Source: Candidatus Hermodarchaeota archaeon (lineage in GTDB: Archaea > Asgardarchaeota > Hermodarchaeia > Hermodarchaeales > Hermodarchaeaceae). Taken from it: DNA of 12,400 bases. This document shows, piece after piece, positions 1 through 12,400 of the stretch; the stretch's first letter is position 1; every line of letters begins with the position of its first letter. Under the pieces are notes generated by a model. It had not been told where the DNA came from. It did no database searches and was given only the letters and a program-made list of their open reading frames with translations. The position numbers and the translations under genes were made by a program. The DNA is taken from positions 1 through 12,400 of the forward strand of contig JAEOUH010000049.1 of assembly GCA_016839365.1 (NCBI GenBank), in the 5' to 3' direction.

Positions 1-2
1 GC

Positions 3-587
3 TCCACGTTTTCCCCCAACATCCGAGTAACAACTGCAGGTACTTCTCTCTCCTATTGGCGACCAGGAGACTATTTCACAATGCGGACAGGACCCAATGG
101 CCGCGTTCACATCGTCTGGACCGATGGTCGAGGGCAAGATGAAGACATCTACTTTGCGAAACAAGATATAGCCAACCCCATCATCACCCATGTCCCTGTT
201 CAGGTCTGGTACCAAGACAGAGCCCTACCACTCACAGTATCAGCTACCGATGACGATTTCCTAGAATGGGTGACGTTGAATTTCAGAAACCCATCAAGTT
301 CAACATGGACCTCAAGAATAATGGAAAAAATTGGCGATTCCACATTTCAATATACTATTCCAGAATCGGGGCTCATGAGCCCAACAATAGAATACTACTT
401 TGTGGCTCGGGACGCAGCTGGACGCGATACTCGGCTTCCTGGTTCAGAATCAGACGCCTTTCTGATACTCATCCTGTCCTTCAATCCACTCCTGGTTGGC
501 ATGATTATTGGATCAACTTTCATCATAATCGGAGTAATCTTTGTCGCATATTGGTATCTCCGACGCACGCCAAATACCGATCATTAA
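3..587 (+). CDS. C-terminal part (5'-truncated by window edge) of a membrane-anchored BNR/exo-sialidase-like beta-propeller surface protein
   Basis: The frame is open from base 3 (STFSPNIRVTTAG...GDYFTMRTGPNGRVHIVWTDGRGQDEDIYFAKQ), typical BNR/Asp-box propeller blade text. It is followed by an Ig-like segment (PIITHVP...EYYFVARDAAG) and a C-terminal TM helix with basic tail (LLVGMIIGSTFIIIGVIFVAYWYLRR). Confidence 0.7.
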   Translation, partial: STFSPNIRVTTAGTSLSYWRPGDYFTMRTGPNGRVHIVWTDGRGQDEDIYFAKQDIANPIITHVPVQVWYQDRALPLTVSATDDDFLEWVTLNFRNPSSSTWTSRIMEKIGDSTFQYTIPESGLMSPTIEYYFVARDAAGRDTRLPGSESDAFLILILSFNPLLVGMIIGSTFIIIGVIFVAYWYLRRTPNTDH

Positions 588-709
588 TCTCCTTAGAATA
601 AACCCTATACGACAATCAAGTCCCTACTTACAGAATTCTAGGTTGTGAAGGCTAAGGCCAATCTTTGTATCAAAATACGAAATGGATTTGCTCTCTCTTT
701 CATGAAAAT

Positions 710-1510
710 CTACAAGACAAAGGATTTGAGGGGAGCTTTTTGCTTCTTAACTGGTCCTGCCCTCTTAGGTACCGGTTCGCCAAAGGGACATACATCCATA
801 CAAATCGAGCATTCAAGGTAGCTATGCGAAGATGGACGCGGAGTCAGTCGTTCTTCAAGATGCCGTACATCCTGAGGGACTTCAGGTGTATCAGGACACT
901 CAAGAGAATAGACTATGCAGTGGTTGATTTGGCACTTGTACGCTGATAGCGCTTGAGCGGGACATGCTTCCACACATTTAGTACAATCGCCACACAAATC
1001 GTCAAGGAATGGCTTATCCGCCTTTAATTCCGCATTAGTTAGCACAGCTATGAGATTTACGCGGGGTCCATGTTGCGGTGTAATCAGTAATGTGTTTTTT
1101 CCCTGCCAACCCAGCCCACATTGAACAGCAATAGGTTTCAGTGGAATCCCTACAGAATATTTGGCCTCAAACCCATTTTGTTGTAGGAAGTCAATAATCC
1201 TCCAAGCCTTGTTCTTCATAATTTCATACGTAAGAAAATATCCATGGAATGGATCAACAGACGACCCTTCCCCCAAATGAACGGAACGGGGTGCTATAAC
1301 ATTGAGGTTGAAAATTTGATCCCACAGGTGAAAGGCCATGATAATTATAGATCTGACCGAAGGAAGTTCCTCATCCGGACGTTGTAGCAGTCGGACCTGT
1401 CCTATCCAACCATGGGGAAGGTTCTCCAGCTTATCTGGATGAGTAATTCCAACGGCAGCGAATCCCACATCGTGTGCGAGCTGTTTAACTTGCTCTGTTA
1501 GTGTACTCAT
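710..1510 (-). CDS. QueG/reductive dehalogenase-like 2x[4Fe-4S] (probably cobalamin-binding) protein
   Basis: Motifs: GFAAVGIT N-terminus, KPIAVQCGLGWQGKNTLLITPQHGPRV, CGDCTKCVEACPAQAL and CSICMDVCPFG. ATG at 1510 is preferred over TTG at 1513. The QueG DYH catalytic motif is not visible, so no gene symbol is given. Confidence 0.85.
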   Translation of the reverse strand: MSTLTEQVKQLAHDVGFAAVGITHPDKLENLPHGWIGQVRLLQRPDEELPSVRSIIIMAFHLWDQIFNLNVIAPRSVHLGEGSSVDPFHGYFLTYEIMKNKAWRIIDFLQQNGFEAKYSVGIPLKPIAVQCGLGWQGKNTLLITPQHGPRVNLIAVLTNAELKADKPFLDDLCGDCTKCVEACPAQALSAYKCQINHCIVYSLECPDTPEVPQDVRHLEERLTPRPSSHSYLECSICMDVCPFGEPVPKRAGPVKKQKAPLKSFVL

Positions 1511-1528
1511 CAATATCTCGTCCTTTAT

Positions 1529-1777
1529 TTACCAATCAATGCGCTGAATCCGTTTCAAGTGAACAGCACGAGATTTGTGCTGCTGTGCATGTAACCAGGC
1601 TCGACGTTGAACGCTATTTGGAACCCAACTTCTTACATCTCTTCCTACATCATCACTTGTGACGAGTGAGGTATTCGGAACCATAATACCTGTAGAAGCG
1701 CTGGATAGGAGGCGCCTGCTTGCTCGCCGAATTCTGCCAAGGATGCTTCGTTTTCCATGAGGGTGTAATGCTTTCAT
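1529..1777 (-). CDS. 82-aa basic hypothetical protein, first gene of the operon with the QueG-like gene
   Basis: SD AGGTGG (1788-1783) lies 5 nt before ATG 1777. The stop is 18 nt from the QueG-like start, and the ORF fills an otherwise empty 380-nt gap. Confidence 0.65.
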   Translation of the reverse strand: MKALHPHGKRSILGRIRRASRRLLSSASTGIMVPNTSLVTSDDVGRDVRSWVPNSVQRRAWLHAQQHKSRAVHLKRIQRIDW

Positions 1778-1824
1778 ATTTACCACCTACTGGTCAGTTG
1801 ACTCGGTGCAGCATATCCTTTCTA

Positions 1825-1838
1825 CCGTCAAACGACGG
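1825..1838. promoter_or_regulatory. Candidate operator CCGTC-AAAC-GACGG upstream of the 82-aa/QueG-like operon
   Basis: Inverted repeat matching the core of the perfect palindrome at 2661-2680 at 12/14 positions. On the minus strand it is followed by AAAGGATAT at the same spacing as AATTTATAT at the other site. Confidence 0.6.
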
Positions 1839-1891
1839 AAGGCCATTAGAACACCAAATTCACTAGCGAAAAAATAGCGGACGTGAGATTG

Positions 1892-2614
1892 TCAGGTCAT
1901 AGCCGGAATAGCATGGCGCTGCTTAATCTCTAATGGGATATGCACATATAACTGTAAAAACGGCATCAAAGACGAAAGCAATTTACTTTCGGCTTTTTGC
2001 AGGTGCTCTTGAAACGTCGTACGCGGAATTCTCTTTTTAGCGGCTATGTCTTTCACGTTGGTCTGCCGCGGAAAATCATAATAGCCATTGGAGTGCGCTG
2101 TGACCAGTGCTGCAAGTTGTTTCTCTGTTAGGCCTGAAAATAAGGCATCCGCGGTAAGGGCTAGTGAGCTGGAAATTACTCCCTCAAAGGGGGCTTTCCG
2201 AATGATCTCATATTGGTAGCCTTTTTCATCAAACCGTTGGAAGAGTCGGTCAATATCCTCATGTTGAAAGACGATGGTCCGATAATATTCCCAGCCCTCA
2301 TCATGTACAACCGGTAACAGATGAAGAAGCTTAAGCTCATCAATCAGTTCCGATATGGTTCCCTCATACTGGCACGAGCACTGTTTTACAATAAGGTGAA
2401 TCCGCCCCTTTTCATAGGTTTGTTCCATAATTCCCTGTAACTGTGCCAGCTCTTCCATGACCTGTGCTTCACTATCCTGACTTACAGAAACAATTTCAAT
2501 CACGTCATGATCGCCATTGCACCAAAAATACATCTTCAGCGAGGGGAACCTTCGAGAGAAATTGCCATAGGGACAATCATGAATTACTTTGAAGACTAGT
2601 TCAAACAACGGCAT
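1892..2614 (-). CDS. Bacterio-opsin activator-like (HTH_10) transcriptional regulator
   Basis: C-terminal LTEKQLAALVTAHSNGYYDFPRQTNVKDIA...RTTFQEHLQKAESKL is the HTH_10 signature, and the N-terminus has HDCP. ATG 2614 fits the TATA position better than GTG 2635. Confidence 0.9.
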   Translation of the reverse strand: MPLFELVFKVIHDCPYGNFSRRFPSLKMYFWCNGDHDVIEIVSVSQDSEAQVMEELAQLQGIMEQTYEKGRIHLIVKQCSCQYEGTISELIDELKLLHLLPVVHDEGWEYYRTIVFQHEDIDRLFQRFDEKGYQYEIIRKAPFEGVISSSLALTADALFSGLTEKQLAALVTAHSNGYYDFPRQTNVKDIAAKKRIPRTTFQEHLQKAESKLLSSLMPFLQLYVHIPLEIKQRHAIPAMT

Positions 2615-2629
2615 TATGATGGCCTCATT

Positions 2630-2680
2630 CGTCACTATCGTGACGGTCCTAATATAAATTCACCCGTCATATGACGGGTG
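2630..2680 (-). promoter_or_regulatory. Promoter of the HTH_10 gene: TATA box (TTTATATT, 2658-2651) flanked by two inverted repeats
   Basis: A perfect 20-bp palindrome CACCCGTCATATGACGGGTG (2661-2680) lies directly upstream of the TATA. A second inverted repeat, CGTCAC-TATC-GTGACG (2630-2645), lies near the expected transcription start. Confidence 0.75.
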
Positions 2681-2709
2681 TGGTTAAGCACGTTTGAAAA
2701 ACGCCTTTT

Positions 2710-3378
2710 CTATTTGCTGAGGATGGTTTTGAACTCATCACAGAGCTTGGCGTTACGGAGGAGAACTCCGATATTTGCCACTAAATCTGAGAGGTAATTA
2801 ATTTCCCAAAGATCTGCTTCGCGGAAGATACCAGAAATGCCCTCGTTTTCTGGGGCTTTTCGCCACAATTCCATCCGAATGCCATCAAGCTGTTCAAAGA
2901 ACTGTCCCATCAGCTTCTTGAAGCCTGCAGGATCCTTGAGCTCTACTTCTAATAATTCTGGCAAGAGAACGCTAAGGCGTTTGATAATCCGTTCGCCTTT
3001 CTCCTTCTCCCACCACTTCTCTTTTTGCCTGTCTTCTCCGAGTACGAAGATGTTTGCGGTGCGGCAGAACAACTTCTCGGTCAAGCGGCTATCGTGTGGC
3101 TTTCGGTGTCCACACTCCATAATTAGCCCTGCATTCTCAAGGGCTTCAAGGTGCCGGTAGACCGTTTTGATGGTTTTATCATACGTTTCTTTGCTCGGAT
3201 TAAAGTACAAGGCGTGAACTTCTTTTACCGTGAGATTCTTCCCAATCATAGCCTTGATGATATCACTATATTCCTTAGCCACAGCTTCCTGCTCCTCTGA
3301 TAAGAAAATGATGGGTTCGGGGCGGGCTGTGAGAAAATCATCATAATCCTTTGGTTTCTCTTTCTCTATATGACCCAT
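2710..3378 (-). CDS. ArsR-like winged-helix transcriptional regulator (222 aa)
   Basis: wHTH pattern LTVKEVH...KTIKTVYRHLEALENAGLIMECGHR...TEKLFCRTA. The upstream extension to 3546 runs through AT-rich promoter DNA, so ATG 3378 is preferred. Confidence 0.8.
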   Translation of the reverse strand: MGHIEKEKPKDYDDFLTARPEPIIFLSEEQEAVAKEYSDIIKAMIGKNLTVKEVHALYFNPSKETYDKTIKTVYRHLEALENAGLIMECGHRKPHDSRLTEKLFCRTANIFVLGEDRQKEKWWEKEKGERIIKRLSVLLPELLEVELKDPAGFKKLMGQFFEQLDGIRMELWRKAPENEGISGIFREADLWEINYLSDLVANIGVLLRNAKLCDEFKTILSK

Positions 3379-3446
3379 ATTACATCTATCCTGTGGGTAA
3401 TTTACACGATCTTCTATGTTAGTTTTCAATTTAACATTGTCATGAA

Positions 3447-3465
3447 CGGTAATATTAATATACCG
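3447..3465. promoter_or_regulatory. Quasi-palindromic AT-rich core CGGTAATATTAATATACCG, candidate bidirectional TATA element
   Basis: AT-only core with CGGTA/TACCG arms, lying between divergent genes (3378 minus, 3602 plus). Confidence 0.5.
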
Positions 3466-3469
3466 GTTC

Positions 3470-3515
3470 GACATAATGATGACATAGTGTGACATCATAA
3501 TGACACTGAGCGTCA
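3470..3515. repeat. Four helically phased GACAY direct repeats, candidate operator array
   Basis: GACAT at 3470, 3481 and 3491, GACAC at 3502 (spacing 11, 10, 11). The last copy also forms TGAC-N7-GTCA (3501-3515). Confidence 0.6.
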
Positions 3516-3601
3516 ATAAGATGAGTATCGGGTCAATCAGCTGCAACCTTGCAGACGATCAAAAGCGAAACTGCACATTCACGCCAAGAGGTGAGGTAGA
3601 A

Positions 3602-3715
3602 ATGACACCCAAATCCAAAGGTGAGAACTGTAATGAACCTCACATTAACCTTGAGGAAGAAAATCACCGCAAGAATCGCATATTTGAATCATATATTCGG
3701 GAGCGAGTTCTTTAA
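3602..3715 (+). CDS. 37-aa small ORF / candidate leader peptide (MTPKSKGENCNEPHINLEEENHRKNRIFESYIRERVL)
   Basis: Consensus archaeal SD GAGGTGA at 3588-3594, 7 nt before ATG 3602, downstream of the candidate divergent promoter. Confidence 0.6.
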   Translation: MTPKSKGENCNEPHINLEEENHRKNRIFESYIRERVL

Positions 3716-4028
3716 GCCTGAAAGAACAACGCCACCAGAATCCGAGCAATTATCATCAGGCTCGATTAAGGTCGATTGTTGTTCGCAGGCCTAAGAACTC
3801 ATTTGAATATTCGCGGATGCCTGCGAAACTGATATCGGGAAATCTCACTAGCGAACCACGATAGAGCGCGAAGGCGAGAGCCTCTAATTCGACACACGAT
3901 TCGATTTGCCTTCTTCTTGCCTCCCTTTCAAAAACAACAACATGCAAGGGTATTCAAAGAGGCATCTTGGGAGAGATCTCCTTGGTGGAAGGGGCTTCTC
4001 TTCCTCTCCTTTTTTCTTTCGGATTCTG
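3693..4028 (+). ncRNA. Putative structured RNA element (cis-regulatory leader/3' UTR or sRNA), family not recognised
   Basis: Multiple complementary segments: 3705-3730 with 3778-3800 (8+5+7 bp), 3782-3790 with 3819-3827 (9 bp), 3736-3745 with 4019-4028 (10 bp), GAGA-tetraloop hairpin 3872-3883, 3918-3923 with 3959-3964, 3970-3975 with 4004-4009. No convincing long CDS in the interval. Confidence 0.5.
3969..4019 (+). terminator. Hairpin plus oligo-T tract, candidate intrinsic terminator/attenuator
   Basis: GGAGAG/CTCTCC outer stem and CTCCTT/AAGGGG inner stem, followed by TTTTTTCTTT (4010-4019). Confidence 0.5.
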
Positions 4029-4158
4029 AACCTGACTGTTCGGAAACAGGAATAGCTATGACTTGTTCAGCAGCTTTTCTGAACCTACCGGGAGCCATGA
4101 AATTATACGTACCAGACAGATATCAAAGACTCAATTCGTTTCGGAGTTCAGAAATACA

Positions 4159-5217
4159 ATGCGATACAAAGTCATTCTTCTCCTCGCTGTGTTGAGCCTC
4201 AGTTGTTGTAGTAGTTTAGCTCCTATTCACGTTTCAACACAGACGATAAGTGATGTCCATGTTTTGTTTGTTCTATCCGACGGATTTGGGTGGAGTTACT
4301 TCACAGCACAGAATATCTTCGATTCTTGGGGTGTTCAGACAACAACCGTTGCGCTAGCTATCGACACCAATGTTTCTGCCTGTCATAATCGACCACACCG
4401 AGAAACCACAGCGGACCTGCTACTCCAAGATTTTGATCTCAATTCATTAACTGATTATGATTGTGTTTTCATTCCCGCAGGCGGGAACTGGCCCACATTA
4501 ATTTCCAGCCAAACAGTGAGAACACTAATTTCAACCGCACACGCACAGGGGCTACTTGTGGCAACCTTCTGTATTGGAAATGTTGTTGTTGCCAGTGCAG
4601 GAACAATCTGCGCCAACACAAAGGTAGCGTCGTTTTCCATGTCTAATGATGAAATGATTGCCGTCGGCGCCAATATTGTTGACAACGTTCGACTAGTCTG
4701 CGATAACCACATAATCACCGGAAGTCAAGGTGGAGGACCTACAGGCGGCGGATATGAAACAGCCCCCATTTATGAGGCCTGTGCCATGGTGGTTAAAATG
4801 GCGTTAGGCTATTCCTTTGCCCAAAACATAGAGATTACGCCAGCGGGCTCTAACTACGCCGTTACAGTAACAACTACGGATCCCGCTAGCCAGCTACCTG
4901 GAATTAATTCTACTACTATTACCTCTGTAAGGGCACATGTCTATTCCCCAGCCAATCCAGTTACTCCAATAACAACAGTGAATTTAGATGAATCCAGTGG
5001 TACTTACACCGGGACGATTTTAGGACTGAGTGGCGGTCCTTATCGCGTAGACATTGAAATCATTGATACTGATCAAGTTCTCGAAGTTATCCGTGATGCT
5101 TCCACTGTTTTCCCTGGGTTACCTCTCCTTGTTGGAGGGGTTGTAATTGGAATTGTTGCCATTATTGCCATAGCCAGTGGGCTATTTTATTGGAAGCGAC
5201 GGTCCCCTCCTTCCTAA
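4159..5217 (+). CDS. Secreted, C-terminally membrane-anchored DJ-1/PfpI (class I GATase-like) family protein
   Basis: Signal-peptide-like MRYKVILLLAVLSLSCCSSLA; DJ-1 motifs VLFVLSDGF, DYDCVFIPAGG, ATFCIG and VCDNHIITG; Ser/Thr-rich beta-sandwich-like segment; TM helix plus WKRR. GGAG at 4143 supports ATG 4159. Confidence 0.8.
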   Translation: MRYKVILLLAVLSLSCCSSLAPIHVSTQTISDVHVLFVLSDGFGWSYFTAQNIFDSWGVQTTTVALAIDTNVSACHNRPHRETTADLLLQDFDLNSLTDYDCVFIPAGGNWPTLISSQTVRTLISTAHAQGLLVATFCIGNVVVASAGTICANTKVASFSMSNDEMIAVGANIVDNVRLVCDNHIITGSQGGGPTGGGYETAPIYEACAMVVKMALGYSFAQNIEITPAGSNYAVTVTTTDPASQLPGINSTTITSVRAHVYSPANPVTPITTVNLDESSGTYTGTILGLSGGPYRVDIEIIDTDQVLEVIRDASTVFPGLPLLVGGVVIGIVAIIAIASGLFYWKRRSPPS

Positions 5218-5225
5218 CCACGCAT

Positions 5226-5265
5226 GAAGGGCACTATCGATGCTGCTCTTCACCCTTTCTTTTTT
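5226..5265 (+). terminator. Hairpin plus T tract after the DJ-1/PfpI gene
   Basis: GAAGGGCA (5226-5233) pairs with TGCTCTTC (5244-5251), followed by CCCTTTCTTTTTT. Confidence 0.55.
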
Positions 5266-5315
5266 CAACTCGACGGATTCATATAGAATGAAAGGAACCG
5301 CGTCACGGATGTGGT

Positions 5316-5732
5316 TTGTTGTCAATTCAAGAAAAAGAGCAAATCCGTGAAACCCTTCGCCTCTTCTTTCTAGCCCAGGAAACAGGTGATGTAAAGCTCT
5401 TCTTAAGGGTATGGCATCCTGAAGCACGACGGTTTGGTTTCGGGTCCAACAACGAACTCTATATCTTCGGCACTGAAGATATCCTTGCCAACCAATTACA
5501 TGCCATTCGTCAAGCCAAGAATGAAGACCCAGATTTTTCTCTGACTTTTCTCATCACCCGCATCAAACACTTCGATGTCCAAAAAGACAACCTTATTGCG
5601 TCTGCCACCGTGGAATGGCAGATGCTCAGCATGGGTAAAAGTATCGGTGTGCACTATTCCCAATTTCATTTTGTTAAATCCGATAATGACTGGGTCATTG
5701 TCAATGTAACCGATCGGGGCAAAGAACTTTAG
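5316..5732 (+). CDS. NTF2-like / SnoaL-like (lumazine-binding-like) domain protein
   Basis: EKEQIRETLRLFF...GDVKLFLRVWHPEAR...IASATVEW...FHFVKSDNDWVIVN is a typical NTF2-fold pattern. TTG start (5316 or 5319). Confidence 0.8.
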   Translation: MLSIQEKEQIRETLRLFFLAQETGDVKLFLRVWHPEARRFGFGSNNELYIFGTEDILANQLHAIRQAKNEDPDFSLTFLITRIKHFDVQKDNLIASATVEWQMLSMGKSIGVHYSQFHFVKSDNDWVIVNVTDRGKEL

Positions 5733-5735
5733 TGT

Positions 5736-6071
5736 CTACTCAGGTGCCCGAGGAAGCTGTTTAACAATATTTAATCCCTCTTCGGTGAGTACAAACACTT
5801 CTCGATCGGTATCAGACTTCCTCCTAAGACACCCCTGTTTCTCAGCTGCTTCCTGTAATGCCACCGAAATGTTACTAATTTTATACGGCGACAAACGCAA
5901 CTGTTGCTGCACCATCGGTGCGGTTAACCCCTCTTCTGAAACATTACATCGTTGATAGAATGCCAAACAGCACAAGATTTCAGTCTCTGTCGCTGGTCGC
6001 ATCGATAAGAGAAACTCGGTCAACCTTAACGGTCGCGTTAATGTTGGCATCGGGGACGGCGTCTCATACAT
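5736..6071 (-). CDS. Hypothetical protein, probable winged-helix fold
   Basis: LTEFL...ILCCLAFY...NISVALQEA...GCLRR...FVLTEEGLNIVKQL resembles a wHTH with a wing LTxxG motif. The start is uncertain (ATG 6071 preferred, 6146 possible). Confidence 0.6.
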   Translation of the reverse strand: MYETPSPMPTLTRPLRLTEFLLSMRPATETEILCCLAFYQRCNVSEEGLTAPMVQQQLRLSPYKISNISVALQEAAEKQGCLRRKSDTDREVFVLTEEGLNIVKQLPRAPE

Positions 6072-6262
6072 CTCACAGGCTAATCTACGTAAACGTAACA
6101 AACAAACACTATGAGCTAAAAACTCCGATTCTGCAAGTCGAATCATGCGTGCTTCTACTAACCGCTCAATGGGTCTAAAACAAACACCACAACGCCTAGC
6201 TTCCTCATCCGACGTAGAATTCTCCTCCTCTGATGAAAGAAGGAAGAAAGAGGAGTAGCCTT

Positions 6263-6526
6263 CTACTCTTCTTCTGCTTCTTCTTCTACGCTGTTCTCTT
6301 CCCAGATACGGCCAAGGACGAGCAAACCAAGGACTAATTCAGAATTCTTCAGTTTCTTAACAATGAATTCAACACTTTCAGAAACCGTATCTTCATAATT
6401 CCAGGCTTCACGAGCTGTGTTGACGATCTCATCGAATTGCTCTTCCTTTAAACCAAAAGCACCGGTAAGAGTCTTACTCTCGTGGTCTTCTATGCTAAGT
6501 TTTCCAAGTTCATAGGTTTTTACCAA
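6263..6526 (-). CDS. 87-aa acidic hypothetical protein
   Basis: GGTGA SD upstream of the TTG start, helical protein-like composition, poly-Glu tail, and a pyrimidine-rich run after the stop. Confidence 0.75.
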   Translation of the reverse strand: MVKTYELGKLSIEDHESKTLTGAFGLKEEQFDEIVNTAREAWNYEDTVSESVEFIVKKLKNSELVLGLLVLGRIWEENSVEEEAEEE

Positions 6527-6702
6527 CCTAGTTCACCAAAACCACCGGACGTAATTCTATCTTATTAACATACTGCTCTTGCGTTTAAAATCAAAAAAGG
6601 TACTAGAAGTAACGGGAAGAGCTATGAATGCGTTAAGTAACTACTTGTATAGTTCTGACCTAAACACTTCCCATAGCTCAGGCAACCCCGAGGTCCCTGG
6701 TA

Positions 6703-7725
6703 ATGCATGAAGCAATGCTGTACAATAAACTCGAAGACGACAAGGTCGGCTGCTATCTGTGTGCGCGCCGATGCACAATAGCAGATGGAAAACTGGGGTA
6801 CTGCCAAGTCCGCAAAAACGAGAAAGGCACCCTTTATTCACTCGTCTATGGAAAAGCATGCTCTGCTAATCCTGATCCTATAGAAAAGAAGCCACTTTGG
6901 CACTTTCATCCAGGCGCACTTGCCATGTCAGTAGCCACCGTCGGATGTAATTTTCGCTGTGACTATTGCCAAAATTGGCAAATCAGCCACGAACGTAAAA
7001 TTATTGGGCGAAAAATGTCCCCTGAGAAAATTGTTGAGTATGCGTTGGAAACCGGGTGCACGGGAATATCATATACATATACGGAGCCGACCATTTTCTT
7101 TGAATACGCCTATGATACCGCGAAGATAGCCCACGCAAAGGGGTTGTTTAATACGTTTGTCACCAACGGTTATATGACCACCGATGCCATTGGCATCATT
7201 GCTCCCTACCTCGATGCCGCCACTGTTGATTTCAAGGGTAATGCCAATCCCACCTTTTACAAAACCTATTGCCATGTCCCCAAAGTAGAGCCCATTTTTG
7301 ATTCGCTCAAAGCGATGAAAGCAGCTGGCATTCATATTGAAATCACTAACCTTCTCGTATCCGATGTCGGCGATGACACCAAAGAAGCGGAAAAACTAGC
7401 CCACTGGATCGTCCAAGAACTCGGTGAAGACACGCCACTCCATCTCTTGCGATTTTATCCCCATTACAAGATGAGTAACCTGCCACCCACCTCCATAAAG
7501 AAACTTGAAGCCGCCGCAGCCGCCTCATCAAGTGCTGGTCTCAAATACGTCTATTTAGGCAATGTTCCTGGTCATCAAGGAGCCAATACCATCTGTGCTA
7601 ACTGCAGCGCACTCCTCATCGAACGATTAGGTATCCGAACACTTTCGGTTCGACTAACACGGGATGGGCGATGTCCATCCTGTAACCTTCCGATTCCAAT
7701 CACACTCTCTAAAGACTTTGTCTGA
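6703..7725 (+). CDS. amrS: AmmeMemoRadiSam system radical SAM enzyme (PflA-like family)
   Basis: N-terminal CYLCARRC...GYCQVR, DPIEKKPLWHFHPG, GCNFRCDYCQNWQIS (CxxxCxxC), YTYTEPTIFFEY, VTNGY, PLHLLRFYPHY, YVYLGNV, and C-terminal CxxC...CxxC. Confidence 0.9.
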   Translation: MHEAMLYNKLEDDKVGCYLCARRCTIADGKLGYCQVRKNEKGTLYSLVYGKACSANPDPIEKKPLWHFHPGALAMSVATVGCNFRCDYCQNWQISHERKIIGRKMSPEKIVEYALETGCTGISYTYTEPTIFFEYAYDTAKIAHAKGLFNTFVTNGYMTTDAIGIIAPYLDAATVDFKGNANPTFYKTYCHVPKVEPIFDSLKAMKAAGIHIEITNLLVSDVGDDTKEAEKLAHWIVQELGEDTPLHLLRFYPHYKMSNLPPTSIKKLEAAAAASSSAGLKYVYLGNVPGHQGANTICANCSALLIERLGIRTLSVRLTRDGRCPSCNLPIPITLSKDFV

Positions 7726-7835
7726 ATGAGGAAATCCGGTTCTGCGAATCCCCTGACGAAATTCATGAATCCCTACTTCTGACACCATCTTTAAGTGGCT
7801 TTGTTGGAAGAAATTTCAAGAAACAGGTGAAGAGT

Positions 7836-8696
7836 ATGCGACTTGTTGCATCCACAGAACCCGATATGGCGACATATTCAGATCAATTTCTCGGCTTGAA
7901 AACCATCTTCGAACAAGCTAAGTTCCCCTTCTGGGCCCTTGTCCGTGAACAAACCGTCTTGGGCTTAATAGTGGCAGCCAAGGAACCCCGAGACCTATTA
8001 CAGCCTGCTAGTACTACCTTCATCCAAGTCTATCTATTTCGTCATGAACCGGATGCAGTAACAAGGATTCTGCGTGAAGCTGACACGATTGCTGCTCAGC
8101 AACAGGCTGTCTACCTTAATTGCGTGGTCAGTGCTGATAAACAAGAGACAATTTACTCGCTCGAAAATGCGAGCTTCTCGGTGTACGATGAAACTGTAAA
8201 AATGGGTGTCCCCTTACAGGATGTAACGCCACCTCCGACAGAGCTAACGTTCACCCGCACTTCTCCTGATGAGACCTCCCTCGTGTTACATAACCTCGAA
8301 ACGATGATGGCCAATACACCAGGACGTTTGCTCCATACAGTAGTCTATAATTTCCGGCATCTTCCTCCAGACAAACTCGAATCAACCCTCTCCCAAATGG
8401 AAGTCATCCTAGTCAAAGATAAAGCCAGCACCGTGGGAGTGATCAGCCTAGAGGGTCCCACAATTGGAATGCTTGGCGTTCACCCCAACCTACGTGGTAA
8501 AGGCTATGGTCGCAAAATGACCCAATGGGCAAAAAACCATCTCGCGGAACAGGGACATTTCCGGGCATGGCTTCGAGTTTCTGTTGCCAATATCCCTGCC
8601 CGGCACATCTTCGAGACTGAAGGCTTCAAAGTCTCTGAACAGATGAAATACTATATCAAAACTAATCCAACTTTGTGGCATCCAATCCCTGAATGA
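7836..8696 (+). CDS. GNAT family N-acetyltransferase (tandem GNAT-like domains)
   Basis: Motif A LGVHPNLRGKGYGRKM and motif B VSVANIPARHIFETEGF. AGGTGA at 7825-7830 is an SD for ATG 7836, and TTTAAG near 7790 is TATA-like. Confidence 0.85.
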   Translation: MRLVASTEPDMATYSDQFLGLKTIFEQAKFPFWALVREQTVLGLIVAAKEPRDLLQPASTTFIQVYLFRHEPDAVTRILREADTIAAQQQAVYLNCVVSADKQETIYSLENASFSVYDETVKMGVPLQDVTPPPTELTFTRTSPDETSLVLHNLETMMANTPGRLLHTVVYNFRHLPPDKLESTLSQMEVILVKDKASTVGVISLEGPTIGMLGVHPNLRGKGYGRKMTQWAKNHLAEQGHFRAWLRVSVANIPARHIFETEGFKVSEQMKYYIKTNPTLWHPIPE

Positions 8697-8794
8697 TATT
8701 TTGCTGTTGGGTTACGGTTTTCTTCTACGAAGCGCCTGTCGTAGGTGTCCTCATCATAATAGAAAACCTCATTCTTTATCACCAACTAGTGGTG

Positions 8795-9808
8795 TTATTC
8801 GGTGCGTCCACGCAAATCTTCAGGCGCAGCTGGGCAATCCAGATAGTCGTCATCAACGCAGGTGCAAACAAATTCTCCGCCTAAATATCTGTATGCTTGA
8901 TAAGCGGCAGTAACTCCCTCGGCCACACCGGTAATCGCTTGTTTGAATTGTGTATCTGTTACATCCCCGGCTGCGAACACACCTGGGATATTGGTTTCAG
9001 TTTGGCGGTTAATGAGGATTTCTCCCTTCTCGTTGGTTTTAACACCCAATTGTACTGCCAATTGGGATAAGGGAAGACTTCCAATGGCGATGAACACACC
9101 TTTCACTACAAGTTCATTTTTTCCTTCAAAAGGCTGATCCAAAACAATCTTTTCGATACCTTGACTTCCCTCAATACTGGTTACGTTAGTGTTGAATACA
9201 AGGGTGATCTTCTCTGTTTTCTTGACTCGTTCCATATTAACTGGCTCGGCTTTCAATTGATCCCCGCGAATAATAACATAAATGTGCTTTGCCCATTGTG
9301 CCAGAATCAAGGCCTCCTTTGCGGCACTATCTCCGCCTCCCACGACCGCCACAAGTTTGTCTTGAAACATCGGTCCATCACAGAGACCGCAAAATTGGAC
9401 TCCTTTCCCTTCAAAGGTATCTGCACCAGGCACCGGAAGCTTACGGTAACGCGTTCCTGTCGCAAAAAGCACTGTTTTTGCCTGATATTCATCGAACGCC
9501 GTATTGACGGTAAAACATCGACCGTCCCGGGTAATCTCTGTGGCCTCATCAAAGACCATATCCACTTCGTACTCTTTGGCGTGCGCCAGTATCTTGTCAG
9601 CTAATTCTTTTCCCGATAAGGAGATGAACCCCGGGTAGTTTTCAATCCAATCCGTGGTGGCAATCACCCCGCCCGGCGGATAGCCAATCAGGACGGTGTT
9701 CAGCTTCATACGTCCTGCATACATCGCTGCCGCGAGACCACTAACTCCACCACCGATTATGGCGATATCATACATTGATTGTTGGTCTGTCAAATGATTC
9801 ACATCCAC
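8795..9808 (-). CDS. trxB: Thioredoxin-disulfide reductase (low-molecular-weight type)
   Basis: FAD motif IIGGGVSGLAAAMY, IENYPG, redox CGLCDG, VVGGGDSA, TNIPGVFAAGDVT and KQAITGVAEG. The start could be GTG 9808 or ATG 9775. Confidence 0.9.
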   Translation of the reverse strand: MDVNHLTDQQSMYDIAIIGGGVSGLAAAMYAGRMKLNTVLIGYPPGGVIATTDWIENYPGFISLSGKELADKILAHAKEYEVDMVFDEATEITRDGRCFTVNTAFDEYQAKTVLFATGTRYRKLPVPGADTFEGKGVQFCGLCDGPMFQDKLVAVVGGGDSAAKEALILAQWAKHIYVIIRGDQLKAEPVNMERVKKTEKITLVFNTNVTSIEGSQGIEKIVLDQPFEGKNELVVKGVFIAIGSLPLSQLAVQLGVKTNEKGEILINRQTETNIPGVFAAGDVTDTQFKQAITGVAEGVTAAYQAYRYLGGEFVCTCVDDDYLDCPAAPEDLRGRTE

Positions 9809-9832
9809 AATAAGTTCCAGCTACTCAGCACT

Positions 9833-10510
9833 TTAAATCGTTGGAGAAATGCCTGTCGGTGAACCTTGGGCTGCTTGCTGGATAAACGTCAAGAACTGTC
9901 CAGGAGGGACAAGGCCTTCGAATTGCACTTTTTCATTCAGCACAGCCTTGGGTGTTCCTACTACATCATACTTTACCGCGAGATGCGGGAATTCCGCGAT
10001 TTCAACTATATCAACCGAAATATTAGCGCTAGCGATGGCAAACTGAAACGCCATGGCTCCCAGGACAGGGCATACAGGGCATGTCGGGATTACAAAGATT
10101 TGAATTTTGACTGGTTTGGTTGCGACTTTTCGTAGGGCTTCTTCTGCTTTTGGTGATAACTCACTTTTTCCTGTCGAAGCAAACACTATTCCTTCAATTA
10201 ATGTCTGAAACTCGTATCCTGATGGAATACCAAACATCCGGAGTCCATAATCCTTTTTGCCCAAAATGGCCACCGCTGGTATCTTCTCAATTCCTAACTG
10301 CTCTGCCTTCTCTTTATCCTTGACAAAATCATGCACTTCAAAGGTGATCTTATCCGAAAGATTGGCCACCGTTTCTAGAAGCTTATGAGTCTGGGCACAA
10401 AAAGGACATTCCATCTCTTGAGTGAAAAAGACGAGTTTTACAGGATCTTTCAATTCCTCATTGAAACGTTGAACCACAGTCTCTTCAATGTCTTCAGGAA
10501 CCTCACTCAT
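9833..10510 (-). CDS. Protein disulfide oxidoreductase (PDO / AhpF N-terminal-domain-like, two thioredoxin folds)
   Basis: CPFC and CPVC motifs, FGIPSGYEFQTLI, EIAEFPHLAVKYDVVGTP, FEGLVP; in an operon with trxB. ATG 10510 is preceded by GGTG. Confidence 0.9.
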   Translation of the reverse strand: MSEVPEDIEETVVQRFNEELKDPVKLVFFTQEMECPFCAQTHKLLETVANLSDKITFEVHDFVKDKEKAEQLGIEKIPAVAILGKKDYGLRMFGIPSGYEFQTLIEGIVFASTGKSELSPKAEEALRKVATKPVKIQIFVIPTCPVCPVLGAMAFQFAIASANISVDIVEIAEFPHLAVKYDVVGTPKAVLNEKVQFEGLVPPGQFLTFIQQAAQGSPTGISPTI

Positions 10511-10591
10511 TACTAGCACCGTACTGAAAGTAAACCTCTGTACCAAAAAAAGCTAGAGGTTTATCAACTACAAAAAACGAAAAAGACCCTC

Positions 10592-11152
10592 ATGAAAGTC
10601 CCAGTTACATATTTTGAAGAAAAGATCACAGAGAATACAGATGAAACCCTTCGCCTCGCCTATCAGCGGGCTCAACAATTGAAAATAACTCACATTGTGG
10701 TACCCACGACATCGGGTGCTACCGCTGTTAAAGCCTTGGAAGTCATGAACGATATGAACCTGATTGTAGTTACTCACATGAGCGGATTCAAAGAACCCGG
10801 TAAAAACCAACTTCTCCCCGAACATCGAAAAATCCTCAAAGAAGCAAATATCCCAATCCTCACAGCCAGCCACGTGCTTAGCGGTGTTGAACGGGGCATA
10901 CGGAATAAATTCGATACCATCGGCCCTGCCATTGTGATTGCCAGCGCCCTCAAAATGCTAGGTCAAGGTGTAAAAGTCGGGGTTGAAATCACTCTCATGG
11001 CTGCAGATGCGGGGCTGATTCCCATGGATCAATCCATCATTGCGCTCGGAGGAACAGGGCGAGGTGTGGATACCGCTATAGTAGTTCAGCCGGCTCATAC
11101 GAACAATGTCTTCGACTTGTACATTCAAGAACTGATATGTAAGCCCCGCTGA
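10592..11152 (+). CDS. Pyruvate kinase C-terminal domain-like conserved protein (MTH1675/COG1751-type)
   Basis: YFE...ENTDETL, HIVVPTTSGATA, VVTHMSGFKEPG, HVLSGVER, GQGVKVGVEITLMAADAG, GGTGRGVDTA, ELICKP. Confidence 0.88.
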   Translation: MKVPVTYFEEKITENTDETLRLAYQRAQQLKITHIVVPTTSGATAVKALEVMNDMNLIVVTHMSGFKEPGKNQLLPEHRKILKEANIPILTASHVLSGVERGIRNKFDTIGPAIVIASALKMLGQGVKVGVEITLMAADAGLIPMDQSIIALGGTGRGVDTAIVVQPAHTNNVFDLYIQELICKPR

Positions 11153-11173
11153 GGAATTTATCGAAGCTGATGT

Positions 11174-12367
11174 CTAGATGTCAATGGTTAGGTATTCAAT
11201 ATCCCAAGGATAGTAGGTTACCATCTCCATCCCATCATCGGTGATGAACACGGTGTCGGAATGACGAAAGCCGCCAATTGCCCGATCATAGATTCCGGGC
11301 TCAACGGTAAAAACCATGCCCGGTTCCATAGTATCATCCATTCCATGGTCGAGAAACGGTTTTTCATGTCCCTCTAGCCCGATGGAATGCCCCGTGTGGT
11401 GTTGAACCAACTCCATAACGCCATGTTGTTTAAACACGCCTCGAGCGGCTTTGTCAACGATTGAACAGGGCTTGCCAGGAGCAAAAGCATCGAAGGCCGC
11501 CTGTTGGGCGTCCATCATAATATCAAAGTATTTCCGTTGTTTCGCGTTTGGTTCTCCTAAAAACATTGTTCGCTCCAACTCAGCATAATACCCGGCGACA
11601 TTGGCGGTAGCCCCCGTAACGAGGGTATCTCCAGCCTTGAAGATTGTGAACCGTGTCATCGCATGGGGGATTGCAGAGTAGGTGCCAATCTGACCGCGAT
11701 AACCCGCATGAACTGGTAACCCACCAATCGCAAACGGACGATAAGCGATGCCTAGGGCTTTCCCCATCGCCGTCGACGCTTCCAAAGATGCCTGCGTAGA
11801 CACTTCGACTTCGTTTAGGCCAACTTTGGTCTTATCCTGAAGCAGCTGGTGGGCTAGATTTGCCCACATGGCTGATTCACGAATACAGGCTAGCTCATCT
11901 GAATCTTTGATGATTCGCATATTCGTCAATAACTGAGCTTCCACTTTCACGGGAAATCCTAAGACTTCCTCTAACTTCGGTCCCTCATACCCCCACCGAC
12001 CTGAACTCCCTGGTGCTTCAGCACCCAACCGATCCTTGATTTTTAACTCCTCTTTTATGAAGGTGGCGAAATGCTTCATTGGATGCTTGGCATCAGGATA
12101 GTCGAAGTAGCTGCCAATCTTTGCCACCCCTGGCACTTCTTCTTCGACGTGCTGTTTTTCTAACTCAGGGACAAAGAAGCTGATATCCGAGTCTTGTACG
12201 ATCAGGGCAAAAGGGCGTTCCGTTGGAATGTGGACAAACCCTGTGAGGTAATAGATATGGGTTGGGTTAAACACAATAAAATGTGCAATTTTTTCTTCCG
12301 CAAGGGTTTGACGCAACTTAGCTAATCGTTCCTCAAACCGGTGTTGTGGTATTTTTACAATGGGCAA
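11174..12367 (-). CDS. M24 family (Xaa-Pro peptidase/creatinase-like) hydrolase
   Basis: Creatinase_N-like N-terminus (YYLTGF), RIIKDSDEL, PHA, GYYAELERT, HHTGHSIGLEGHE, TVEPGIY, GGFRHSDT. GGAGGT (12380-12375) favours TTG 12367 as the start. Confidence 0.88.
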   Translation of the reverse strand: MPIVKIPQHRFEERLAKLRQTLAEEKIAHFIVFNPTHIYYLTGFVHIPTERPFALIVQDSDISFFVPELEKQHVEEEVPGVAKIGSYFDYPDAKHPMKHFATFIKEELKIKDRLGAEAPGSSGRWGYEGPKLEEVLGFPVKVEAQLLTNMRIIKDSDELACIRESAMWANLAHQLLQDKTKVGLNEVEVSTQASLEASTAMGKALGIAYRPFAIGGLPVHAGYRGQIGTYSAIPHAMTRFTIFKAGDTLVTGATANVAGYYAELERTMFLGEPNAKQRKYFDIMMDAQQAAFDAFAPGKPCSIVDKAARGVFKQHGVMELVQHHTGHSIGLEGHEKPFLDHGMDDTMEPGMVFTVEPGIYDRAIGGFRHSDTVFITDDGMEMVTYYPWDIEYLTIDI

Positions 12368-12400
12368 TTGCAGGACCTCCAACAGAGCTTAGTGATACCA

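Follow-up and report, generated by a model that had tools for sequence, protein, structure and literature searches.

A predicted small-protein gene of one Hermodarchaeia genus with an apparently selected messenger RNA hairpin across its stop codon

In Methanosarcina mazei, small-protein-coding RNAs (spRNAs) and small proteins have been mapped (PMC11456600; 10.1101/2025.10.28.685009). As the available parts of these reports present them, spRNAs are stand-alone short transcripts for proteins of about 70 aa or less, with their own promoter and terminator, no known family, and non-coding parts that are long relative to the open reading frame (ORF). Here we describe a locus of similar build, with a putative promoter, from Candidatus Hermodarchaeota archaeon. 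It lies in a 12,400-nt stretch (positions 1 to 12,400 of the forward strand of contig JAEOUH010000049.1, assembly GCA_016839365.1), hereafter the window, which is contig C22 of a 2.2-Mb metagenome-assembled genome (MAG) that is 84% complete. The locus consists of a 71-codon ORF and a messenger RNA (mRNA) tail, about 300 nt in length and closed by a hairpin and U tract. It belongs to another phylum than the spRNAs described in those parts and has no sequence relation to them; it also differs in that part of its coding sequence appears to be locked together with the tail into a selected 150-nt hairpin, H1.

Dual-function RNAs, as covered in the available part of PMC12612679, likewise have on one transcript a small ORF that is translated and a non-coding part with conserved structure, but in the present locus the conserved structure overlaps the ORF rather than flanking it, and neither a base-pairing target nor an activity in trans is known. 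The layout also recalls bacterial attenuators of the trp/his/leu type, in which, according to the available part of PMC2965389, the 3' end of an ORF forms one arm of a helix whose other arm has an alternative partner; here, too, an in-silico ribosome at the stop codon alters the fold. Unlike bacterial attenuators, the locus has no regulated downstream gene, no terminator among its helices and no regulatory codons, its ORF encodes a conserved protein, and its structure occupies the stop region of a complete gene and the sequence after it, not a 5' leader. A looser parallel is the Escherichia coli arfA mRNA, where a hairpin from the 3' part of a small ORF ties expression of the protein to the fate of the mRNA end. 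arfA depends on RNase III cleavage and transfer-messenger RNA (tmRNA); to our knowledge, archaea are without tmRNA and most are without RNase III. We take arfA as a lead only: in H1 too it is the 3' end of a small ORF that pairs, and a cleavage site is not readable there.

The small ORF sits between a minus-strand winged helix-turn-helix (wHTH)-like gene and a plus-strand gene for an exported DJ-1/PfpI protein that starts at 4159. We read the locus as a monocistronic, genus-restricted small-protein gene with a selected H1 that has a role in cis and does not control the next gene, and we give this reading a probability of about 0.6. Transcription would begin at a TATA box common to the divergent wHTH gene, with the flanking palindromic and phased TGACA repeats as that regulator's operator. 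Translation from AUG 3500 would yield 71 aa, and translation from a second AUG at 3602, preceded by a Shine-Dalgarno (SD) sequence, would yield 37 aa; the mRNA tail would end at the covarying hairpin and U tract at 3969-4015. H1 would comprise the final 13 codons, the stop codon and the adjoining 110 nt of tail; it would be built over an older helix, H2, whose 5' arm it buries, and would act on its own mRNA by affecting stability or the efficiency of 3'-end reading. Direct support exists for the gene, its conservation, its structure, the selection on it and its independence from DJ-1; the promoter/operator, the internal start and the cis role are put forward more cautiously. Asgard archaea are uncultured or nearly so, and their post-transcriptional control is almost uncharted. 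The locus offers an orphan small protein that is kept across a whole genus, invariably together with a wHTH regulator that evolves fast.

For comparison we used about 20 distinct orthologous sequences (L and G numbers below) drawn from genomes, metagenomes and single contigs, 19 of them codon-aligned; the loci come from MAGs labelled Promethearchaeota or Candidatus Hermodarchaeota, whose phylum is described in PMC8163825. The window's clade comprises 10 close relatives that carry H1, to which L058, a 585-nt contig with a coverage of 1.5, was added later to give an 11-sequence alignment. The locus is syntenic in 12 genomes. At permissive thresholds, Rfam returned no match to the window at E <= 1 and none to eight orthologous loci at E <= 0.1, and a scan for tRNA and tmRNA gave no match. 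A DNA search of the window's own genome (the 2.2-Mb, 84% complete assembly) found no second copy of the element, and a search of the same genome for the pattern of H2 gave two other matches, both unrelated to the element. A known Rfam family and a decayed miniature inverted-repeat transposable element, the two identities that the initial annotation of this DNA had wanted checked, were both looked for in this way and neither was found; the element is single copy.

That annotation had reported a 37-codon ORF. The frame is real, but it is the second half of a gene of 71 codons, a frame of 71-72 codons being open in all of the roughly 20 orthologous sequences. In the N-terminal half, both alternative frames are closed by stops in all 19 codon-aligned sequences, and indels are whole codons in both halves. 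The ratio of nonsynonymous to synonymous change (dN/dS), a test that had been proposed for the peptide across homologous loci, is 0.43 over the first 28 codons and 0.28 after the internal Met, and both halves show an excess of third-position substitutions (permutation p = 1e-4 and 4.5e-4). Public gene calls for the small ORF range from 71 to 104 aa, with 39 aa in one case, and the gene family amounts to 15 clusters among 5.8 billion proteins. The gene is single copy and was found in 12 of 14 genomes from its genus but in none of 4 from the sister genus; all of these genomes are incomplete MAGs. Together these patterns indicate that the 71-codon ORF is a real small-protein gene, restricted, as judged by its distribution, to one genus of Hermodarchaeia. 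Pfam has no match to the 71-aa product or to a minus-strand 63-aa ORF. AlphaFold2, run with 22 sequences, predicts a mostly disordered product with a conserved C-terminal helix (residues 51-70), the sole ordered part of the model.

The 37-codon form nonetheless has a probable translation signal of its own. GAGGUGA, which had been called a consensus SD, pairs over 7 bp with the 16S rRNA 3' end ...GGAUCACCUCCU of the same-genus genome G005 and is separated from AUG 3602 by 7 nt. The codons that contain it, CCA AGA GGT GAG GTA, show zero third-position changes across the 19 sequences, as against a variation of 0.22-0.35 at third positions elsewhere. In L018 a GTG replaces the internal ATG. The SD pairing and the frozen third positions suggest that a 37-residue form is probably made as well, besides the 71-aa protein. 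The strings and coordinates reported earlier agree with the window letter for letter, with the internal ATG and the TAA now placed at 3602-3604 and 3713-3715. The consensus from RNAalifold also places the SD within a predicted hairpin; all of its pairs are invariant and hence neutral as evidence.

The long interrupted hairpin described in the initial annotation, H1, withstood the comparison with shuffled sequences proposed for it. The stretch 3676-3830 folds at -51.1 kcal/mol, against -34.1 +/- 3.7 in 200 shuffles (z = -4.58), none of which was as good. H1 is the minimum free energy (MFE) fold in 10/10 clade members, with a core of -42 to -50 kcal/mol, and the stop codon is located in an internal loop. 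Across the 11-sequence alignment, 90% of the cells in H1 are paired, as opposed to 25-40% with the partner slid. We observed 7 double-sided pair changes in that alignment, compared with 3.3 +/- 1.2 in shuffles, of which 2/500 reach 7. L058 adds, at 3706/3799, a change from A-U to G-C and, at 3679/3823, one from C-G to U-A. The paired changes concentrate in the apex. Here the apical hairpin Ha exists in several stem versions (CGAGC/GCUCG, CCGA/UCGG, GGGG/CCCC and CCCC/GGGG), with both sides changed in 5 cells versus 1.1 in shuffles (0/500 reach 5), and analogues of Ha occur in L014, L015 and L057.

Conservation along this stretch is strikingly uneven. Relatives in the clade are 94% identical to the window over 3630-3715, 85% over 3716-3745, 62% in the apical loop, 88% over 3776-3830 and 40% over 3831-3950. 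In the same relatives, identity is 75% in the wHTH coding sequence and 74% in the first half of the ORF itself, and the wHTH proteins of the clade, L010 apart, are 39-55% identical to the window's. Such a mosaic rules out recent exchange or recency as its cause. It therefore bears on the possibility that the hairpins have no function and arise incidentally where short words (GAAC/GUUC, UCGCA, GCCUG, GAAUAUUC) are repeated in sequences of recent divergence. In keeping with that possibility, there are many alternative pairings, a palindromic word repeated directly yields apparent stems, and the distal part folds at chance level; yet the mosaic falls within 300 nt next to a coding sequence at 75%, the synonymous suppression is specific to the clade and the paired changes exceed those in shuffles, and we hold this explanation to be highly improbable. 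The suppression is seen in the synonymous divergence (pS): within the clade, pS is 0.12 in the last 28 codons and 0.40 in the first 28, whereas among lineages without H1 the values are 0.61 and 0.67. Selection on RNA structure can thus be read from synonymous freezing in one clade as against free change in its sister lineages. With arms frozen even at synonymous sites and an apex that covaries, the comparative data indicate that H1 is selected as RNA in the window's clade.

Table 1. Features of the small-protein locus, in window coordinates
Feature	Start	End	Strand	Details
Palindrome	3435	3478	.	inverted repeat (TGTCA..N..TGACA) centred on TATA-like box TAATATTAATATA (3450-3462)
Phased TGACAT/TGACAC repeats	3480	3506	+	three copies, starting at 3480, 3490 and 3501; spacing 10-11 nt; kept in relatives
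Small-protein gene	3500	3715	+	71 codons, MTLSVN...PRGEVEMTP...EPH...RKNRIFESYIRERVL; stop TAA 3713-3715
SD and internal AUG	3588	3604	+	GAGGUGA 3588-3594, AUG 3602-3604; starts 37-codon form
Predicted SD hairpin	3591	3643	+	GUGAGGU 3591-3597 / ACCUCAC 3637-3643; RNAalifold consensus; internal AUG in loop
H1, long interrupted hairpin	3676	3826	+	5' arm: last 13 codons, stop and 3716-3730; 3' arm: 3778-3826
Hs, small hairpin over stop codon	3707	3727	+	GUUCUUU / AAAGAAC; suggestive only; competes with H1
Ha, apical hairpin of H1	3734	3772	+	stems vary among relatives, pairing kept
H2, rival helix	3782	3827	+	UUCGCAGGC 3782-3790 / GCCUGCGAA 3819-3827; excludes 3' arm of H1
H2', small hairpin	3810	3827	+	UUCGCGG / CUGCGAA; MFE folds of clade; prediction only
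H3	3870	3913	+	GAAGGC / GCCUUC; weak, optional domain
H4, terminator-like hairpin	3969	4019	+	GGGAGAGA 3969-3976 / UCUCUUCC 3997-4004; U tract 4010-4015, UUU 4017-4019
Inverted repeat 3' of U tract	4024	4045	.	TTCTGAAC-N6-GTTCGGAA; just 3' of U tract

Beyond the clade, the picture changes. Three models, of H1, of the rival set Hs, Ha and H2, and of sequence only, were built from one clade alignment and run on nine distant orthologs. The H1 model gave 17-22 bits in three and no match in six, the rival set 15-49 bits and the sequence-only model 10-33 bits. H1 was not found in these distant lineages, and since its model scores below sequence only, H1 is not genus-wide. The small hairpin Hs may be older: its pair is U-A to A-U changed in L012, and other lineages have GUGCU/AGCAC (the L017 group) or UGCUCU/AGAGCA (G011) in its place.

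Expression of the region is hinted at by a wetland metatranscriptome, in which one 182-nt contig spans 3643-3824 at 93% identity. The contig gives weak support for the end of the ORF and the hairpin region lying on one RNA. Four DNA-type runs hold the stretch in pieces, and the other RNA runs listed held next to none of its words.

Several observations weigh against the reading that we prefer. The basal helices of H1 are near-invariant, which means that their support is mostly conservation and not covariation, and the extra compensatory pairs rest on one contig, L058, of low coverage. The minus strand folds equally well. H1 is missing in other lineages, which rules it out as the locus's core function. 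The protein model is poor, with a mean confidence score (pLDDT) of 61, and gives no basis for assigning a function, and the sole contig from an RNA library derives from a relative and could be carried-over DNA. Finally, freezing sets in at about 3630, which is 45 nt 5' of the 5' arm of H1 and coincides exactly with the start of an ORF in the +1 frame; H1 alone is insufficient as an explanation for this. Candidates for the early freezing are the predicted hairpin that would sequester the SD and this +1-frame ORF (3633-3794).

The latter could in principle account for the frozen nucleotides altogether, as an overlapping gene of 53 codons (MNLTLTLRKKITARIAYLNHIFGSEFF...CCSQA) in place of an RNA structure. 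The frame is open in 10/10 clade members, its start coincides with the onset of synonymous suppression in the main frame, whose third positions are its second positions, and its post-stop part is without indels. However, it shows a weak coding signal, with a post-stop dN/dS of 0.57 as compared with 0.70-0.79 in the other two phases and a slight third-position excess (p = 0.09), and the L016-L019 lineages have no ATG for it. An overlapping gene also leaves the conservation of 3795-3830 and the paired changes in the apex unexplained, and we consider it very unlikely as the cause. The main-frame and +1-frame products are both hydrophilic or charged. A type I toxin-antitoxin system of the hok/sok kind was rejected on account of these products and because no conserved antisense promoter was seen, 3831-3950 being 40% identical.

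The 3' arm of H1 has a competing partner. Of the two alternatives proposed for it at the outset, the pairing of 3782-3790 with 3819-3827, which forms H2, held up: its TTCGCAGGC/GCCTGCGAA pair is invariant in the clade, it is retained in L015 as UGCAGG/CCUGCA with both sides of a C-G to U-A pair changed, and it is kept with G-U changes in the L017 group and L042. The other, TTGTTGTT/AACAACAA, looks like chance, as the AACAACAA partner lies in the stretch conserved at 40% and is already changed in a relative with 99% identity. Among the lineages compared, H2 is weakened in L057, absent from L014, L016, L046/47 and G011, and decayed in L058, and H1 and H2 coexist in 10 close relatives only. When H1 forms, the 3' arm of H2 is predicted to be taken up by H2', in which L013 changes a G-U to an A-U pair.

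This arrangement raises the possibility of a switch gated by translation, in which the untranslated mRNA forms H1 and hides H2, while a ribosome on the last codons melts the 5' arm of H1 and lets H2 form, with Hs and Ha. As outputs one could imagine decay of the mRNA, a factor that binds H2, or tail processing. H1 and H2 exclude one another, with evolutionary support for each separately, and the near-total invariance of the segment common to both would fit nucleotides that serve two partners. Folding with the stop region held unpaired, a calculation suggested earlier, did have the anticipated effect: blocking a ribosome-sized stretch (15 nt before the stop and 13 nt after) raised the probability of H2 from 0.00-0.02 to 0.2-1.0, with 6 of the 10 clade members reaching 0.9 or more. 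Such refolding follows automatically from the layout, however, and is no evidence of function. Nor does the switch have a nameable output, since neither helix precedes a U tract; L058 retains H1 though the 3' arm of H2 has decayed, several lineages have neither helix, and each arm of H2 is also accounted for by its partner in H1 or H2'. The retention of H1 in L058 and the lack of both helices in several lineages make a replacement of H2 by H1 the simpler history. In the simplest account that the comparisons allow, an ancestral tail carried Hs, Ha and H2, and in one clade the post-stop stretch became complementary to the 5' arm of H2, whereupon H1 would have taken over. A switch is unlikely in our estimation, and so is its novel form, in which the stop codon of this clade's orphan small-protein mRNA would itself be the site of a switch, with H1 burying the older H2 and a terminating ribosome freeing it. 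If true, the mRNA would signal its state of translation to a factor for decay, processing or binding, and ribosome-sensed RNA refolding would exist in an archaeon, at a 3' rather than a 5' position.

The mRNA tail closes with H4 and its U tract, as had been noted from the window, and the stems of H4 covary across lineages. The outer stem reads AGGAGAG/CUCUCCU in L012, GGGAGAA/UUCUCC in L037, GGGAGGGUG/CACCCUCCC in L015 and GGAAGGG/CCCUUCC in L046/47. These stems were read from individual folds, MAFFT having placed L015 and L039 out of register there. The first T5+ tract after the stop is 207-300 nt away in the clade; in the window and most clade members it is the tract of H4, and L011 has an earlier, interrupted TTTCTTTT tract at +207. 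A covarying G+C-rich hairpin followed by a U tract ends the unit in about six of the eight lineages examined. Like bacterial intrinsic terminators, H4 combines a G+C-rich covarying stem with a U6 within 5 nt, and by stem, U tract and compensatory change it reads as a terminator of the intrinsic type. Archaeal termination is usually described as dependent on a U tract and a factor, with a hairpin unneeded, which makes it notable that H4 is kept by compensatory change in so many lineages. The available part of PMC8716108 describes the U tract as the archaeal termination signal and aCPSF1 (FttA) as acting in termination. H4 may serve in termination or in protection of the 3' end, and a hairpin-plus-U-tract 3' end preserved in this manner is relevant to transcript termination or protection in Asgard archaea.

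The pairings proposed further downstream resemble chance. The distal stretch 3831-4030 as a whole folds at chance level (z = -0.15 against shuffles). Of the suggested competitors there, the AGGC-GAGA-GCCT hairpin is not beyond chance and GAAGGC/GCCTTC (H3) has weak support. The perfect 10-nt complement CAGAATCCGA/TCGGATTCTG (3736-3745/4019-4028) is also chance-like, with uncompensated mismatches in L010, L012 and L013. At the place aligned with H3, relatives have GAGUGAU/AUCACUC, and L012 and L044 carry a deletion of the entire domain. In G011 and L016 the tail shrinks to about 60 nt.

These properties of the tail bear on the idea that it, or a processed piece of it, base-pairs in trans, as a dual-function RNA or a small RNA (sRNA) derived from the 3' untranslated region, with the ORF as passenger or second function. 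Single-stranded blocks, among them ACCAGUGAAC and the H2 loop UAUUUGA, recur in several lineages, and archaeal small-protein-coding sRNAs are known from the available parts of PMC11456600 and 10.1101/2025.10.28.685009. On the other hand, a target has not been identified, a separate promoter or processing site is not visible, the tail is short in two lineages and without the H3 domain in two others, and 3831-3950 is poorly conserved, so that an action in trans appears quite unlikely to us. What had been offered as a stand-alone dual-function RNA survives largely in another form, as a small-protein gene plus a selected mRNA structure.

One of the two interpretations offered originally was a leader-peptide attenuator, in which the position of the ribosome on the 37-codon peptide sets read-through of the polymerase into DJ-1/PfpI. 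A short ORF with a strong SD does overlap alternative helices, and 10 of the examined loci do have DJ-1 as a downstream gene on the same strand. Synteny contradicts this interpretation. DJ-1 is absent in L011, L012, L014 and L016, which are distinct lineages and in which a SnoaL-like gene follows directly, and in L046, L047 and G011 a convergent gene follows the element. The ORF and tail are kept in all seven of these loci (at least seven keep the element without DJ-1), with H1 and H2 unchanged in L011 and L012, and attenuation of DJ-1 is therefore unsupported. Moreover, no U tract follows H1 or H2, the sole hairpin with a U tract lying 180 nt beyond and outside the alternatives, and the interval between H4 and DJ-1 contains repeated TTCTGAAC motifs as well as, near 4100, a TATA-like box. 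The ORF itself comprises 71 codons under protein-level selection, in which the sole run of identical residues is EEE and no regulatory codon runs were found. A literature search on archaeal leader-peptide attenuation and on archaeal Term-seq hairpins matched only bacterial work. We reject the attenuator, whose probability we regard as close to negligible, and with it a tempting but wrong reading, that of bacterial-style attenuation in an archaeon, is removed.

Upstream, a palindrome surrounds a TATA-like box. Its TTGTCAC..GTAATATTAATATACCGG is near-invariant in all lineages, G011 included, and the element is probably a bidirectional promoter/operator that serves the minus-strand wHTH gene and the plus-strand small ORF alike. 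The three phased TGACAT/TGACAC repeats span ATG 3500 and the likely transcript start, and translate as MTxCDI.MT where the frame extends further upstream in relatives; they are a candidate operator. The palindrome and the TGACA repeats are near-invariant genus-wide and look like an operator through which the divergent wHTH regulator governs both genes. The coding region of the wHTH-like gene (2710-3380, minus strand) ends at about 3380, and a domain search yields a weak HTH_5 match only. Its protein evolves fast in the genus, with 32-55% identity to the window's outside the closest two (L036, L010), compared with 72-97% for the adjacent HTH_10 regulator and 58-98% for the SnoaL-like protein.

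Other repeats lie beyond the 3' end of the unit. The TTCTGAAC motif, present in the inverted repeat just 3' of the U tract, is found again around the promoter region of DJ-1, at 4077-4084 and in inverted form at 4146-4153. Altogether, five words of the TTCTGAAC / GTTCAGAA type, in both orientations, are found from the U tract to the start of DJ-1 (4024, 4038, 4066, 4077 and 4146). TTCTGAACC is kept in most lineages, also in those without DJ-1, and the copy just 3' of the U tract, retained even where DJ-1 is missing, is possibly a transcription-factor site. A minus-strand ORF across this region (3928-4098, 56 codons), which one public contig annotates as a 68-aa gene, is probably no gene: its sole conserved residues, FRK and SEQSGSE, translate the TTCTGAAC repeats, and we treat it as spurious.

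The DJ-1/PfpI protein (4159-5217) begins with a signal that includes a lipobox-like LSCC motif, and its C-terminus, ...FPGLP followed by a hydrophobic helix and a KRRS tail, resembles an archaeosortase sorting signal of the PGF-CTERM type. With such signals it would be a surface-anchored member of the DJ-1 family. In a same-genus genome, the 16S rRNA gene (L055, G005:C71, 619-4212) is about 3.6 kb long for a model of 1478 positions, which implies large insertions, possibly introns.

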